DNA from: a virus
DNA: 37,393 nucleotides
Virus genome (UHGV): UHGV-0149281
Direction: 5' to 3' (one strand)
Below the pieces are notes generated by a model, which did no database searches, had not been told where the DNA came from, and saw nothing but the letters and a program-made list of their open reading frames with translations. The stretch's first letter is position 1, and each line of letters begins with the position of its first letter. The position numbers were made by a program, and so were the translations under genes. Of this stretch, positions 5,021 through 28,329 are shown in pieces.

Positions 5021-5320
5021 TCAAATAAGTGGCTTGCTGCCTAATTTCATTTTCTGGCGACCAACACAAGTCACACCCATTTCACTGCGTGGCTTGCGGT
5101 AGTAAATACGGTTCTGTTTACGCTCGACTTCATCTGCCTTCTTGCAGAGAAGGCTTCCGAGTGATGCTGCTTTGTCTGCTCTGACGCAACCAGAGAGCTT
5201 TAGCGCAATTTTTCGCGCCAGTCGCTGTTCTTCCATTGCCTGCTCACGTTGAGCCTGTCTGCGTGCTCTGCGGCGATTTCTGGCGTTATCGTCAGCCAGA
5301 TATGTAATGACTACTGTCAT
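5021..5320 (-). CDS. N: N-like transcription antiterminator
   Basis: N-terminal arginine-rich motif (NARNRRRARRQAQREQ); C-terminus RKPRSEMGVTCVGRQKMKLGSKPLI parallels lambda N; GGAGG RBS; nutL immediately upstream. Confidence 0.85.
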   Translation of the reverse strand: MTVVITYLADDNARNRRRARRQAQREQAMEEQRLARKIALKLSGCVRADKAASLGSLLCKKADEVERKQNRIYYRKPRSEMGVTCVGRQKMKLGSKPLI

Positions 5321-12364: not shown

Positions 12365-12543
12365 GGCGACAGCGACGAAGTTTCACCGACATCATCTGCG
12401 AAAACTGCAAATACCTTCCAACGAAACGCTCCAGAAATAAACGCAAGCCAATCCCAAAAGAATCTGACGTAAAAACCTTCAACTACACGGCTCACCTGTG
12501 GGATATCCTGTGGCTTAGAGAACGTGCGAGGAAAACAAGGTGA
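12361..12543 (+). CDS. ninE: NinE
   Basis: [49 protein letters not shown] matches lambda NinE. Confidence 0.85.
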
Positions 12544-12710
12544 TTGACCCAAATCGAAGTTACGAACAAGAAAGCGTCGAGCGGGCTTTAACGTGCGCTA
12601 ACTGCGGTCAGAAGCTGCATGTGCTGGAAGTTCACGTGTGCTCCGATAGCTGCGCAGAACTGATGAGCGATCCGAATAGCTCAATGTACGAGGAAGAAGA
12701 CGATGAATGA
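12540..12710 (+). CDS. ninF: NinF
   Basis: GTG start; [33 protein letters not shown]...[10 protein letters not shown] matches lambda NinF. Confidence 0.8.
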
Positions 12711-12804
12711 GTTAATAAATGGCAATGCCATCAAAATGACAAGCATTGAAATCGCTGAGTTGGTGGGTAACGGAATGCTGAAAGTAACAGGGGAGGCTGC
12801 TTAA
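12703..12804 (+). CDS. small ORF (33 aa)
   Basis: Overlaps neighbours at both ends. Confidence 0.25.
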   Translation: MNELINGNAIKMTSIEIAELVGNGMLKVTGEAA

Positions 12805-13094
12805 TGGCCAATCTACGCAAAGAAGCACGCGGCAGAGAATGTCAGGTACGTATTTACGGCGTATGCAATGGCAATCCTGAAACTACAGTTCTGGCACATT
12901 ACCGGATGGCTGGAATTTGCGGAACGGGAATGAAGCCTGACGACCTGATCGGCGCATGGGCTTGTAGTGACTGCCACGCGGAGATCGACCGACGCACCCA
13001 TAATCTCGACAACAAAGACGCCAGACTTTACCACCTCGAAGGCGTGATCAGGACGCAGGCGATACTGCTGAAGGAGGGGAAGATTAAGTCATGA
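12804..13094 (+). CDS. DUF1364/YbcO-like putative nuclease with Cys/His cluster
   Basis: 96 aa; C..C....H...C..C.SDCH motifs; resembles YbcO-type prophage proteins from memory. Confidence 0.6.
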
Positions 13095-13486
13095 AAACCT
13101 ACCGAATAAAATTGCCGTGGCCTCCTTCAAACAACCGATATTGGCGACACTCAAGAGGGATCCACTACATCAGCGACTGGGGGAAGAGATACCGAAAAGA
13201 AGTAATCGAAATAATCTAGCAACAACAGCTAGACATCAAAATCACACCTCGCATCAGAATAACCATCCACGCAGCACCTCCCGATAACCGCAAACGAGAT
13301 TTGGACAATCTGCCCAAAGCCGTTTTTGACGCACTCACCAGTGCGGGCTTCTGGCTGGATGACGGTCAGATAGACGATATGCGCATCAAGCGCTATCAGG
13401 CGATTAAAGGTGGAATGCTTGTGTTGGTTGTGACTGAAACATGCGGGAGTTTGCCAATGATTACAGAGCTACTGGAGGCCGCATGA
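13091..13486 (+). pseudogene. rusA: rusA Holliday-junction resolvase interrupted by an in-frame amber codon
   Basis: N-terminal [20 protein letters not shown] and C-terminal RKRDLDNLPKAVFDALTSAGFWLDDGQIDD both match RusA in one frame, separated by TAG at 13217-13219. Confidence 0.75.
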
Positions 13487-13653
13487 CGTTCTCAGTAAAA
13501 ACCATTCCAGACATGCTCGTTGAAGCATACGGAAACCAGACAGAAGTAGCACGCAGACTGAAATGTAGTCGCGGCACGGTAAGAAAATACGTTGATGATA
13601 AAGACGGGAAAATGCACGCCATCGTCAACGACGTTCTCATGGTTCATCGCTGA
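13483..13653 (+). CDS. ninH: NinH
   Basis: [56 protein letters not shown] matches lambda NinH. Confidence 0.85.
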
Positions 13654-13666
13654 TGGAGTGAAAGAG

Positions 13667-14332
13667 ATGCGCTATTACGAAAGAATTGATGGCAGCAAAT
13701 ACCGAAATATTTGGGTAGTTGGCGATCTGCACGGATGCTACACGAACCTGATGAAAAAACTGGAGACGATAGGATTCGACACCAAAAAAGACCTGCTTAT
13801 CTCGGTGGGCGATTTGGTTGATCGCGGTACAGAGAACGTCGAATGCCTGGAATTAATCACATTCCCCTGGTTCCGAGCTGTACGTGGAAACCATGAGCAA
13901 ATGATGATTGATGGCTTATCAGAGCGTGGAAACGTCAATCACTGGCTGCTTAATGGCGGTGGCTGGTTCTTTAATCTCGATTACGACAAAGAAATTCTGG
14001 CTAAAGCTCTTGCCCATAAAGCAGATGAACTTCCGTTAATCATTGAACTGGTGAGCAAAGGTAAAAAATATGTCATCTGCCACGCCGATTATCCTTGTGA
14101 CGAATACGAGTTTGGAAAGCCAGTTGATCATCAGCAGGTAATCTGGAACCGCGAACGAATCAGCAACTCACAAGACGGGATCGTAAAAGAAATCAAAGGA
14201 GCGGACACGTTCATCTTTGGTCATACGCCAGCAGTGAAACCACTCAAGTTTGCCAACCAGATGTATATCGATACCGGCGCAGTGTTCTGCGGAAACCTCA
14301 CATTGATTCAGGTACAGGGAGAAGGCGCATGA
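13667..14332 (+). CDS. ninI: NinI Ser/Thr protein phosphatase
   Basis: 221 aa; metallophosphatase motifs GDLHG, GDLVDRG, GNHE matching the lambda phosphatase. Confidence 0.9.
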
Positions 14333-14952
14333 GACTCGAAAGCGTAGCTAAATTTCATTCGCCAAAAAGCCCGATGATGAGCGACTCACCACGGGCTACG
14401 GCTTCTGACTCTCTTTCCGGTACTGATGTGATGGCTGCAATGGGGATGGCGCAATCACAAGCCGGATTCGGAATGGCTGCATTCTGCGGTAAGCATGAAC
14501 TCAGCCAGAACGACAAACAAAAGGCTATCAACTATCTGATGCAATTTGCACACAAGGTATCGGGGAAATACCGTGGCGTGGCAAAGCTTGAAGGAAATAC
14601 TAAGGCAAAGGTACTGCAAGTGCTCGCAACATTCGCTTATGCGGATTATTGCCGTAGTGCCGCGACGCCGGGCGCAAGATGCAGAGATTGCCACGGTACA
14701 GGCCGTGCGGTTGATATAGCAAAAACAGAGCAGTGGGGGAGAGTTGTCGAGAAAGAGTGCGGAAGATGCAAAGGCGTCGGTTATTCAAGGATGCCAGCAA
14801 GCGCCGCATATCGCGCTGTAACGATGCTAATACCAAACCTTACCCAACCTACCTGGTCACGCACTGTTAAGCCGCTGTATGACGCTCTGGTTGTGCAATG
14901 CCACAAAGAAGAGTCAATCGCAGACAACATTTTGAATGCGGTCACACGTTAG
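14329..14952 (+). CDS. Q: late antiterminator Q
   Basis: 207 aa with the zinc-binding CRDCHGTG...CGRCKG region; matches lambda Q. Confidence 0.9.
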
Positions 14953-16825: not shown

Positions 16826-17305
16826 ATGACCCAGCATATTGGCGTAAAACTGATTAACGCCTTTCCGATGACGAGACAGGCATATAACGATTTTCGTGGC
16901 TGGCAGCTTCCTGCCGGAGAAAACGGCGAGGACGAAGGCTATCTGGTTGAATATCTGGATGGCGGAAAACCTAACACCGATCGCTTTGATGGCTACGTTA
17001 GCTGGAGTCCAAAAGAAGTATTCGAAAAGGCTTATCGTCCGGTATCAGGGTTAAGTTTCGGCCTTGCCATGGAAGCGTTAAAACAGGGCAAAAGTTTGCA
17101 GCGGGCAGGATGGAATGGGAAAGACCAGTTTGTTTATCTCGTGAAAGGGGAAAAATTAGCGTCTGCGTTGGGTTATGGCTTTGGCGAATATGTTGGCGAG
17201 CCAACTTTCAATGACACGCTTGTATTGAAAAACTCACAGAACCGCCTTGCTACATGGGTTCCATCCATTGGCGACCTGATGGCTGAAGACTGGCAAATCA
17301 TTTAA
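16826..17305 (+). CDS. hypothetical protein with C-terminal DUF2829-like domain (possible Tad2-like nucleotide sponge)
   Basis: 159 aa from ATG 16826; motif FGLAMEALKQGKSLQRAGWNGKDQFVYL resembles the DUF2829 signature as I remember it; not verified. Confidence 0.6.
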   Translation: MTQHIGVKLINAFPMTRQAYNDFRGWQLPAGENGEDEGYLVEYLDGGKPNTDRFDGYVSWSPKEVFEKAYRPVSGLSFGLAMEALKQGKSLQRAGWNGKDQFVYLVKGEKLASALGYGFGEYVGEPTFNDTLVLKNSQNRLATWVPSIGDLMAEDWQII

Positions 17306-22659: not shown

Positions 22660-23571
22660 ATGGACCAAACCACCGACATTCAGGCTTCTGAAGAATTAAC
22701 CCTGCCCGGCAATCATGCAGCGGCATCTGCTGATGGCTTAGTTGTCGATAATGCCAACGACAACGCAGGTCAGGAAGAAGGCTTCGAGATTGTCCTGAAA
22801 GACGATGAGAAACCAAAACAAGACCCGGCAACTAATGCTGAATTTGCCCGTCGCCGCATCGAACGCAAACGCCAGCGTGAGCTTGAGCAACAGATGGAAG
22901 CGGTTAAGCGTGGAGAGTTGCCGGAGCACCTGCGGGTGAACCCTGAGTTACCAAAACAACCAGACCCTAACGATTATCTTTCCGAAGATGCACTGGCTAA
23001 GTACGACTATGACCAGAGCCGCGCACTGGCTGCCTTCCAGCAGGCAAATAGTGAATGGCAGATCAAGGCTATGGACGCACGAAGCCAGGCTGTCGCCGAG
23101 CAGGGTCGCAAAACTCAGGAGTTCACCCAGCAATCAGCGCAATACGTCGAGGCAGCCCGTAAGCACTACGACGCAGCGGAAAAGCTCAATATCCCTGACT
23201 ATCAGGAGAAAGAGGATGCATTCATGCAACTGGTGCCGCCAGCAGTCGGTGCCGACATCATGCGCCTCTTCCCGGAGAAATCCGCTGCTCTCATGTATCA
23301 CCTTGGTGCTAATCCTGAGAAAACACGCCAGTTGCTGGCGATGGACGGGCAATCCGCGCTGATTGAACTCACTCGACTGTCAGAACGTTTAACTCTCAAG
23401 CCTCGAGCCAAACCTGTTTCAGAAGCCCCGCTACCTGATGAACCCATTCAGGGACACGCTGTTGCTGCAAATATATCTGCGATTGAAAAGCAGATGGAAG
23501 CGGCAGCAAACAAAGGGGATGTAGAGACATACCGCAAGCTCAAGGCGCAACTGAATAAAGGAATTCGATAA
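22660..23571 (+). CDS. scaffolding protein (P22 gp8-like)
   Basis: 303 aa; [31 protein letters not shown]...[31 protein letters not shown] matches P22 gp8. Confidence 0.95.
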
Positions 23572-24093
23572 TTATTTCGATATCGTGATGTTGTTTTCCT
23601 CGTCAAACTTTCTGATTACTTCTTTCGCCTCTTCGAATGAAGAACATACTTTTTGCACTCTTGCATTAAGCAGTCGCTTATGAGCGATCCATCTTTTCCG
23701 CGTGTTGCAAAAGTAAACTCCAGATATTCCGCTGGAGTTATTTTTAGATAGTTTGATTCTATTCCTTTGGTTTGCTGATTTTTTCACAAGACGAAGATTT
23801 TCAATTCTGTTGTCGTGGCGAATCCCATTTATATGGTCAATTTCCATGCCTTCTGGAATATCTCCGTTAAACATTACCCATACGATGCGGTGTGCTAGCC
23901 ACTTAATGCCGTTAATTCTTATGCGGATATATCCATTGCTTTCTAAAAGACCAGCAACTTTCCCAGCGTGTTTTGCATTCCAAACGTTGTGATAGTTGCG
24001 ATTCTTTTTGTTGTTGAAAAATTCAGAGCTTCTGGCTTTCCAAACCAAAGAGCCATCGCGGTATTCGAAGTATTCATTCAGTTCCATGCTCAT
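23572..24093 (-). CDS. free-standing HNH homing endonuclease with AP2-like DNA-binding domain
   Basis: 173 aa; HNH motif EIDHINGIRHDNRIENLRLV; C-terminal SGISGVYF...KRWIAHKR AP2-like; AT-rich; opposite strand to the head operon. Confidence 0.85.
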   Translation of the reverse strand: MSMELNEYFEYRDGSLVWKARSSEFFNNKKNRNYHNVWNAKHAGKVAGLLESNGYIRIRINGIKWLAHRIVWVMFNGDIPEGMEIDHINGIRHDNRIENLRLVKKSANQRNRIKLSKNNSSGISGVYFCNTRKRWIAHKRLLNARVQKVCSSFEEAKEVIRKFDEENNITISK

Positions 24094-24160: not shown

Positions 24161-25456
24161 ATGACTCTCAAAGAAGGGCAGTTAGTTACTTACGCTATCG
24201 ATGAAATCATCGAAACCGTCCAGAACCTGACGCCAATGGCGTCCAAAGTGACAAAATACACCCCTCCGGCAGAATCCATGCAGCGTTCAAGCAACACCGT
24301 GTGGATGCCTGTTGAGCAGGAAGCGCCAACCCAGACTGGCTGGGATTTAACTGGCAACGCAACCGGGATTCTGGAACTCTCCGTGAAATGCAACATGGGC
24401 GGTCCGGATAACGATTTCTTCGAGCTTCGTGCAGATGACCTGCGTGATGAGCGTTCTTACCGTCGCCGCATTCAGGCATCCGCCAAAAAACTGGCGAATA
24501 ACATTGAGTCAGCGATTGCCAAACAGGCAACTGAAATGGGCTCGCTTGTTGTTCACGATACCCGCGCAATTGGTCCATCTACTGGCCTGTCTGGCTGGGA
24601 TTTTGTGTCTGATGCAGAGCGCCTGATGTTCTCCCGTGAGCTAAACCGCGATATGGGCATCAGTTACTTCCTGAACCCTGACGATTACCGCAAAGCAGGA
24701 CGCAACCTGGTAGATGGTGACATCTTCGGTCGCGTTCCTGAAGAAGCGTATCGCAACGGTACTATTCAGCGTCAGATTGCTGGCTTTGATGAAATTCTTC
24801 GCTCACCGAAACTTCCGGCAGTTACCAAGTCAACCGCTACTGGTGTAACTGTTTCTGGTGCGCAGAAGTTTAAGCCGCAGGCATACACCCTTGATACCGA
24901 TGGTAACAAAGAGAACGTCGACAACCGTGTTGCAACGGTGACCGTATCCTCCACCACCGGGTTTAAGCGCGGCGACAAAATCAGCTTCACTGGTGTGAAA
25001 TTCCTGTCTCAGATGGCGAAGAATGTGCTAACTGATGACGCGACTTTCTCAATCACTCGTGTGATCGATGGTACTCACATCGAAATCACGCCGAAACCGA
25101 TTGCACTGGATGACGCGTCACTGACAAAAGAAGAGAAGGCTTACGCTAACGTAAACACCTCTCTTGCTGATGCCACTCCGGTAAACGTTCTGAACGTGGC
25201 AACAACCACCGCTAACGTGTTCTGGGCTGATGACTCAATCCGTCTGCTGTCTCAGCCGATCCCGGTAACCCATGAACTGTTTGCTGGCATGAAAACGTCT
25301 TCCTTCAGCATTCCTGGTATTGGTGTTAACGGCATCTTCGCAACGCAGGGTGATATCAACACTCTGTCTGGTAAGTGCCGTATTGCTGTGTGGTATTCAG
25401 CATGTGCTGTACGACCAGAGGCAATTGGTGTTGGTCTGCCTAACCAGACCGCGTGA
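24161..25456 (+). CDS. major capsid (coat) protein (P22 gp5-like)
   Basis: 431 aa; [21 protein letters not shown]...[15 protein letters not shown] matches P22 coat. Confidence 0.95.
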
Positions 25457-27628: not shown

Positions 27629-28329
27629 TGGCTGATTCGAATCTCAACACCCCTGTTATTGTGCAGGCGACGCGGCTCGATACATCAATCCTTCCACGCA
27701 ATATCTTCTCGCAGTCGTATCTGCTGTACGTTATCGCACAGGGTACTGATGTTGGTAACGTGGCGAACAAGGCCAACGAGGCCGGACAGGGCGCTTATGA
27801 CGCACAAGTCAGGAACGATGAGCAGGATGTGATTCTGGTCGATCACGAAGAAAGAATTCGTCAGCTCCGCATCGACGTAGACGACCATGAAATCCGTATT
27901 ACTGCAAATACCAATGCAATCGCGTCGCTGGATGTCAGACTAACCACGGCTGAAGGTGAAATAGTCACCTTGCAGGCTGATGTCAGTGCTCTCGATGGTA
28001 GAGTGACGGAGGCTGAAGGAAATATTTCTGCATTGCAGGACGATTACGTATCGAAAACAGCCACAGCAACACAATCGCTGGCATCCCCCCTCAACGTAAC
28101 AACATCCTATTCAGTCGGCGGTACCAAGGTTATCGGTGCTCGTCAGACAGGATGGACAGCGGCAACCGGAACGGCACTCCTCGGCGCATTCAACGCTAAC
28201 CAGGCATACACTGTCGGCACTACGTACACGCAATCCGAAGTCGCGGCTCTCGCTACAGGTTTGCAGCAGGCGCGGCAGCGTATTCTGGCGCTTGAAACGG
28301 CACTTAGATTACATGGGCTGATTGACTGA
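27628..28329 (+). CDS. tail needle (P22 gp26-like)
   Basis: 233 aa trimeric coiled-coil needle; N-terminal 140 aa match P22 gp26; C-terminal tip diverges. Confidence 0.9.

Follow-up and report, generated by a model that had tools for sequence, protein, structure and literature searches.

An amber allele of rusA in a clonal P22-like prophage of wild Escherichia coli, most probably a product of ordinary gene decay

The rusA gene of the virus genome UHGV-0149281 is interrupted by a single in-frame amber codon, which is most probably a recent C-to-T nonsense null mutation in a clonal prophage of wild E. coli and a case of ordinary gene decay; we put the probability of this reading at roughly 0.86. 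In outline, one recent transition would have converted the Gln43 codon CAG to amber and become fixed in the prophage lineage. Translation would then end after 42 residues, ahead of the Arg segment and the catalytic residues, and yield no active resolvase. The whole stretch of DNA analysed, here called the window, is 37,393 nucleotides long; it spans from just inside the int side of the prophage to 50 bp past the tailspike gene, and it includes neither int nor either att site. The features discussed below are listed in Table 1.

The rusA frame runs from its ATG to a TGA at 13484–13486 and translates as 42 codons, a stop, and a further 88 codons, so that the full-length frame is broken at codon 43. 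When Gln43 was restored, the protein matched the Pfam RusA family PF05866 over residues 9–106 with 69.6 bits (E=4.9e-19, against a cut-off of 22.8 bits) and the E. coli RusA structure 1Q8R over residues 1–117 (E=1e-37). Because both matches run across the TAG, the locus is read as a single broken gene, and a chance juxtaposition of two ORFs is excluded by the homology that crosses the stop. The preliminary description of this DNA had stated that the two halves of rusA lie in one frame and are parted only by the TAG; frame and homology both agree with it. In the alignment to 1Q8R, the motifs RKRDLDNLPK and WLDD are conserved, i.e., the catalytic residues and the Arg segment are still encoded. 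The 42-residue N-terminal piece alone matched no Pfam family, and no gene had been called at rusA by the gene callers on contigs identical to the window. By its sequence, it is a pseudogene or null allele of the RusA family.

Table 1. Coordinates of rusA, its interrupting codon and associated features in the window.
Feature	Position	Strand	Remarks
N-like antiterminator	5021..5320	-	phrog_271, E=6.8e-36
ybcO-like gene (DUF1364), intact	12804..13094	+	Overlaps rusA start; Pfam YbcO E=1.4e-43
rusA (RusA-family Holliday-junction resolvase)	13091..13486	+	131 codons; stop at codon 43
Predicted 42-aa truncated product (N-terminal strand, flexible loop, part of helix alpha1)	13091..13216	+	No catalytic residue; PMC1636454
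Perfect 6-bp inverted repeat TCTAGC-N7-GCTAGA, made by the C-to-T change	13215..13233	+	Arms 13215–13220 and 13228–13233; ancestral TCCAGC imperfect
Amber TAG, from CAG (Gln43) via C-to-T at 13217	13217..13219	+	Alignment column 127
C-rich, G-poor tract after the stop, possible Rho loading region	13220..13297	+	Composition only; Rho effect putative
Untranslated catalytic core	13286..13363	+	Alignment to 1Q8R; residue roles PMC1636454
Arg-rich DNA-binding segment	codons 66-69	+	In untranslated core
D70	13298-13300	+	Catalytic, after stop
D72	13304-13306	+	Catalytic, after stop
K76	13316-13318	+	Catalytic, after stop
D90-D91	13358-13363	+	Catalytic, after stop
ninH, natural short 56-aa allele	13483..13653	+	ATG overlaps rusA stop (ATGA); own GGAGG Shine-Dalgarno
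ninI (Ser/Thr phosphatase), intact	13667..14332	+	213/221 identical to lambda
Q antiterminator, intact	14329..14952	+	206/207 identical to lambda

In E. coli RusA, D70, D72, K76 and D90/D91 are critical for cleavage and residues 66–69 form an Arg-rich DNA-binding segment; in the monomer, two helices flank a sheet of four strands, and the protein works as a dimer (PMC1636454). A product of 42 residues would be unable to form this fold. The first in-frame restart candidate after the stop is a TTG at codon 71, which is already past D70 and has no obvious ribosome-binding site. Because all of the cleavage residues lie 3' of the stop and there is no in-frame restart before codon 71, the TAG allele is almost certainly null, as judged from the sequence together with the published mutagenesis. 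The stop had been assigned to a poorly conserved linker, which is true in so far as K-12 RusA has a Lys at position 43; however, Gln, encoded by CAG, is invariant at this position in 49 of 49 close relatives. Helix alpha1 begins near residues 28–29 in the published structure (PMC1636454), and residue 43 is more likely to lie inside or at the end of this helix than in a linker.

Intact versions of the gene are common. A search of 5,426 complete E. coli genomes by megablast returned 31 records with this rusA allele group, at 96.5–99.7% identity and none at 100%; all 31 are listed as intact rusA/RusA features, and the TAG occurs in none of them. The six best of these alleles are identical to the window rusA at 395 of 396 positions, and in the one that was base-aligned for its single difference (strain E2, in an alignment of five representatives with the window) that sole difference is the C-to-T change of CAG to TAG. 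Codon 43 is also CAG in each of the relatives that were fetched (44/44, plus 5/5 further), none of which has an internal stop. In IMG/VR, a 35-base pattern gave 39 exact matches in its CAG version and none in its TAG version; the TAG version had no match in JGI metagenome contigs either, and in the GTDB representative genomes neither version matched, so that this last scan was uninformative. The TAG is thus derived, and a single transition separates it from an intact allele that is common. Over longer distances, intact rusA is under purifying selection (pN/pS 0.08 against the allele of phage L), which argues that the gene is functional in these relatives. Its loss in the present lineage is apparently recent, with no further changes accumulated. 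The preliminary description had listed a recent inactivating mutation among its explanations and had proposed a comparison with intact alleles in related prophages; that comparison, in which all alleles have CAG and the nearest is one base away, bears the explanation out, since the window allele carries a single derived C-to-T change and is otherwise identical to intact ones. A literature search found no paper on an interrupted rusA in E. coli prophages.

We consider it unlikely that the stop is functionally leaky, such that a near-cognate tRNA-Gln or a supE-like host suppressor provides low but sufficient RusA and the mutation attenuates the gene rather than inactivating it. Low levels of RusA are enough to suppress ruv defects in K-12, and since the ancestral codon CAG specifies Gln, a Gln inserted at UAG would give back precisely the wild-type sequence. 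In E. coli, near-cognate tRNAs at UAG do insert mainly Gln or Tyr (PMC4333366; PMC11126739), and the +4 base is a C and not the termination-favouring T (PMC11126739). However, readthrough in E. coli is linked to G-rich upstream bases or a +4 G, while upstream bases that are free of G and contain T are associated with efficient termination (PMC11126739). The context here is TAATC-TAG-C, in which the five upstream bases include T and lack G, and the +4 base is not G. Only a weak 6-bp hairpin (z=-1.8) was found around the stop, and the TAG is confined to one clonal lineage, being present in 0/49 relatives, 0/39 IMG/VR pattern matches and 0/31 E. coli alleles. Neither conservation of the stop among homologues nor a context or structure that promotes programmed readthrough was thus observed. 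ARAGORN found no tRNA gene, and hence none with a CUA anticodon, in the window or in the 10-kb host flanks (loci L071 and L074), the region over which the proposed check for amber suppressors was run. A leaky stop, as previously suggested, therefore finds little in its favour, given a stop that is unconserved in any relative, an unfavourable context and no local suppressor tRNA, although trace insertion of Gln by near-cognate decoding might still regenerate some wild-type RusA.

A premature stop could in principle also bring Rho-dependent polarity to bear on the downstream genes ninH, ninI and Q, as the 78 nt directly 3' of the TAG have 37% C and 12% G, proportions that are typical where Rho loads. 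The ninH gene has a GGAGG four bases 5' of its ATG, and this ribosome-binding site, together with the N-like antiterminator, should limit any such polarity, so that expression of ninH-ninI-Q would persist. It is very doubtful that the amber is an adaptive attenuator, in which trace readthrough supplies RusA during lytic growth and the exposed C-rich Rho-loading tract ties ninH-ninI-Q more strictly to N. If it were, one base would retune both resolvase dosage and late-gene timing. From what is established for lambda, the loss of rusA would be tolerated. Lambda forms plaques without its nin region, which is silent in the lysogen, and the host supplies RuvABC. As an accessory recombination gene of this dispensable region, rusA would be expendable in lytic growth, and in the lysogen it would be silent in a host with its own RuvABC.

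The TAG was found in contigs assembled from three different read sets. These were located through exact-product look-ups of neighbouring small genes, as contigs with the gene order of the window and no gene called between ybcO and ninH; no called protein corresponded to the 42-aa N-terminal piece, since gene callers skip it. Codon 43 is TAG in NODE_10 (159 kb) of the ENA assembly ERZ652503, which is 100% identical to the window over 20.2 kb, and in the Logan contigs SRR4305296_761 and SRR8090709_4914, which are 100% identical over 13.2 kb and 5.1 kb, respectively (the TAG is carried by our loci L060/L062/L066, L068 and L070). For the parts of the window outside these stretches, contigs from ERZ28649716, ERZ28650773 and ERR11815624 gave 100% identity. 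The prophage thus occurs with zero mismatches in at least four metagenome-derived sample sets (ERZ652503, ERZ28649716/SRR4305296, ERZ28650773/SRR8090709 and ERR11815624), and the lack of SNPs between samples implies a single clone that was widely or repeatedly sampled. A literature search on the sample accessions gave no match, and the exact prophage is absent from the 5,426 complete E. coli genomes, from the INPHARED phages and from IMG/VR. An intact CAG rusA is present on the same nin haplotype, comprising a 33-codon roi remnant, ybcO, a 131-codon rusA and a 56-codon ninH, in GCA_003145465.1, GCA_050375755.1 and SRR14272569. Because contigs with the TAG and 100% identity come from three samples, and the intact CAG occurs on the same haplotype elsewhere, the amber is genuine and heritable, and belongs to a single clonal lineage of the prophage.

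There is accordingly hardly any room for a sequencing or assembly artefact in which the true sequence has CAG. The difference is a single base, and the TAG allele is missing from the 5,426 complete E. coli genomes, IMG/VR and the JGI metagenomes, as an error would be; however, it is found in contigs of three read sets produced by at least two pipelines (ENA assembly and Logan), with 100% identity over 5–20 kb, at a site that is outside any homopolymer and has no Dcm or Dam motif. Of the sequencing or strain artefact that had been raised for this codon, the sequencing error is rejected by the recurrence of the TAG in three separately sequenced samples, while the allele itself is specific to one clonal lineage.

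The element is a temperate phage, a P22-like/lambdoid mosaic. The genes for terminase, portal, scaffold, coat, gp4/10/26, ejection proteins and tailspike are of the P22 type, and the phages that match best, HZ41, IME10, APC_JM3.2, Dewey and Louie, do so with coverage of at most 67%. The early and nin-Q-lysis regions are lambdoid and include genes for an N-like antiterminator, a cI-like repressor and a primase/helicase, as well as cII-like and O-like genes. Flanking sequences were obtained from the contigs ERZ28649716 and ERZ652503 (L074, 11563–12948; L071, 11918–21917). On the left, a lambda-type int-xis segment with 98.3% DNA identity to lambda ends at lambda position 27724, in the attP core, and is followed by ybhC-ybhJ-ybhI-ybhH. 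On the right lie ybhB-bioA-bioBFCD-uvrB, and the ybhB-bio segment has matches of up to ~99% in 5,425 of the 5,426 E. coli genomes. Because of the int-xis/attP flank and the ybhC and ybhB-bio junctions, we conclude that the prophage occupies att-lambda of a wild E. coli lineage. Apart from rusA, the prophage looks intact. A search of the window (tblastn/blastp against the ORFs of 49 related loci) revealed no other premature stops in real gene frames; besides rusA and a natural ninH allele, the whole-window comparison yielded only noise in non-coding frames, and the virion genes that were checked against annotated relatives are equal in length to their counterparts.

The relationship to lambda varies along the element. 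In BLAST comparisons with lambda NC_001416, DNA identity is 93.8% for ninE-ninF, 97.0% for ninH-ninI-Q (48 mismatches in 1,578 bp) and 92.5% for S-R-Rz, and ninB has no DNA match. At the protein level, Q is 99.5%, S 99.1%, R 98.7% and NinI 96.4% identical to lambda, and NinH is identical at 56 of 56 positions but is 12 residues shorter; Rz is 61% identical. The near-identity to lambda that had been reported thus applies to NinH, NinI, Q, S and R, less well to NinE (90%) and NinF (89%), and not to NinB (39%). Similarity of this kind is normal for natural lambdoid modules and does not point to recent descent from a laboratory strain, for which we would expect more than 99.9% DNA identity in the shared segments, where 92.5–97.0% was found in the nin, Q and lysis regions and 98.3% in int-xis.

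Chemical mutagenesis of phages classically yields C-to-T changes to amber, and the 99–100% identity of the Q, S, R and NinH proteins, along with the lambda-like int-xis, could suggest that the mutation or a lambda-derived segment came from a laboratory phage stock, as the preliminary description had considered; but this is most improbable in view of the DNA divergence of the shared blocks, the dissimilar NinB and Rz, the P22-like or otherwise non-lambda virion and replication modules, the integration of the element in E. coli chromosome contigs from metagenomes, and the presence of the same nin haplotype with intact rusA in other wild genomes.

Two further genes in the window were noted in the course of the annotation. 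Between the scaffold (22660–23571) and coat (24161–25456) genes, on the opposite strand, is a gene for a 173-aa HNH endonuclease (23572–24093, minus strand; Pfam HNH_3, E=3.9e-22), an arrangement shared with phage Dewey. The gene probably entered the head-gene cluster as a mobile homing endonuclease. Just 3' of the lysis cassette, at 16826–17305 on the plus strand, is a gene for a Tad2-like (Thoeris anti-defence 2-like) protein (PF11195, E=6.4e-22), a candidate anti-defence gene.

The C-to-T change converts the imperfect repeat TCCAGC-N7-GCTAGA, a quasipalindrome, into a perfect inverted repeat. We enumerated all single substitutions in rusA and the nin-Q region and found that only 1.3–2.0% of them complete such a repeat, counting perfect stems of 6 bp or more, with a loop of 3–12, that include the mutated base. 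Completion of this kind is what template switching in a quasipalindrome would be expected to leave behind. With a stem of 6 bp and a test that was applied post hoc, this is suggestive of template switching in the quasipalindrome as the source of the mutation, and we treat it as a lead. If correct, it would constitute a small natural case of template-switch mutagenesis in a prophage. A methylation-linked miscall or deamination hotspot was also considered and discarded: the site lies in neither a CCWGG nor a GATC sequence, and no motif is common to the changed sites.

The closest characterised relatives of the gene are RusA of the E. coli K-12 prophage DLP12 (1Q8R/2H8C) and Rus of phage 82, which belong to the same family, have the same catalytic residues (D70/D72/K76/D90-91) and occupy the same slot, 3' of ybcO (DUF1364) in the nin region between ninB/orf and Q. 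The window rusA differs from these in its amber at codon 43 and in its length, 131 aa compared to 120 aa, owing to a C-terminus that is 11 residues longer. In DLP12 the gene is intact, though its expression is poor (PMC4118853). Intact alleles of 131 aa are found in the prophage of E. coli E2 (WP_000861015.1), phage JEP4 and the Salmonella phages L and ST64T, with 91.9–99.7% DNA identity to the window. These P22-like/lambdoid alleles have the same ybcO-rusA-ninH order with overlapping start and stop codons, but differ in having CAG at codon 43 and being annotated as intact. In lambda, the equivalent slot between ninF and ninH is filled by rap (ninG), which encodes a branch-specific endonuclease that is a functional analogue of RusA but structurally unrelated to it; rusA and rap thus share the ninR slot between orf/ninB and Q as structurally distinct resolvases (PMC4118853). 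NinG is absent from the window; it takes the place of RusA in many relatives that share the short NinH.

The mutation seen here is most probably ordinary gene decay with no recoding signal, and it matters little beyond annotation, where the locus should be given as an amber (Q43*) pseudogene of rusA, carried by a P22-like att-lambda prophage that is otherwise intact. It does provide a clean natural nonsense null in a dispensable nin-region gene, and the allele could serve as a lineage marker for a clone that is present in several metagenomes.

Several neighbouring nin genes also depart from their lambda or panel counterparts. The NinH frame ends with a TGA (13651–13653) at codon 57, which is GGA in lambda and five close relatives, giving 56 aa in place of 68; the short protein keeps its HTH (Pfam Phage_NinH positions 1–56 of 60), and ninI starts 13 nt 3' of the short ninH without overlap. 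In NinF (12540–12710), codon 37 (12648–12650) encodes a C37S substitution of the fourth Cys of a CxxC...CxxC motif, a Cys that is invariant in 13 panel alleles; the adjacent Cys38 might substitute for it. Compared to our first panel of 49 loci, these changes, together with ninE R50L, a 621-bp deletion in roi and the rusA Q43* itself, looked like a compelling cluster of private nin lesions. In ninI, Q, R and Rz, almost every private change was synonymous. That panel was biased, having been chosen through the rusA pattern, and the exact-product look-ups ruled the cluster out: the ninE, ninF, roi and ninH changes are common natural alleles. The 56-aa NinH occurs in 97 assembly-collection blocks from many phage backgrounds, and among the assembly-collection contigs 17 carry NinF C37S, 7 carry NinE R50L and 8 carry the 33-aa roi remnant. 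Of these changes, the rusA TAG alone is lineage-specific, and the apparent private lesions from a small reference panel, which vanished once a larger collection was queried, illustrate a caution of method. The roi remnant itself is a 33-codon ORF (12703–12804) left by the in-frame internal deletion in a roi/KilAC antirepressor gene, with a 3-bp overlap at the junction (12768–12770); intact roi genes of 240 aa are present in five of the related loci (L046, L030, L017, L047 and L037), and the remnant was found in at least three different phage backgrounds.
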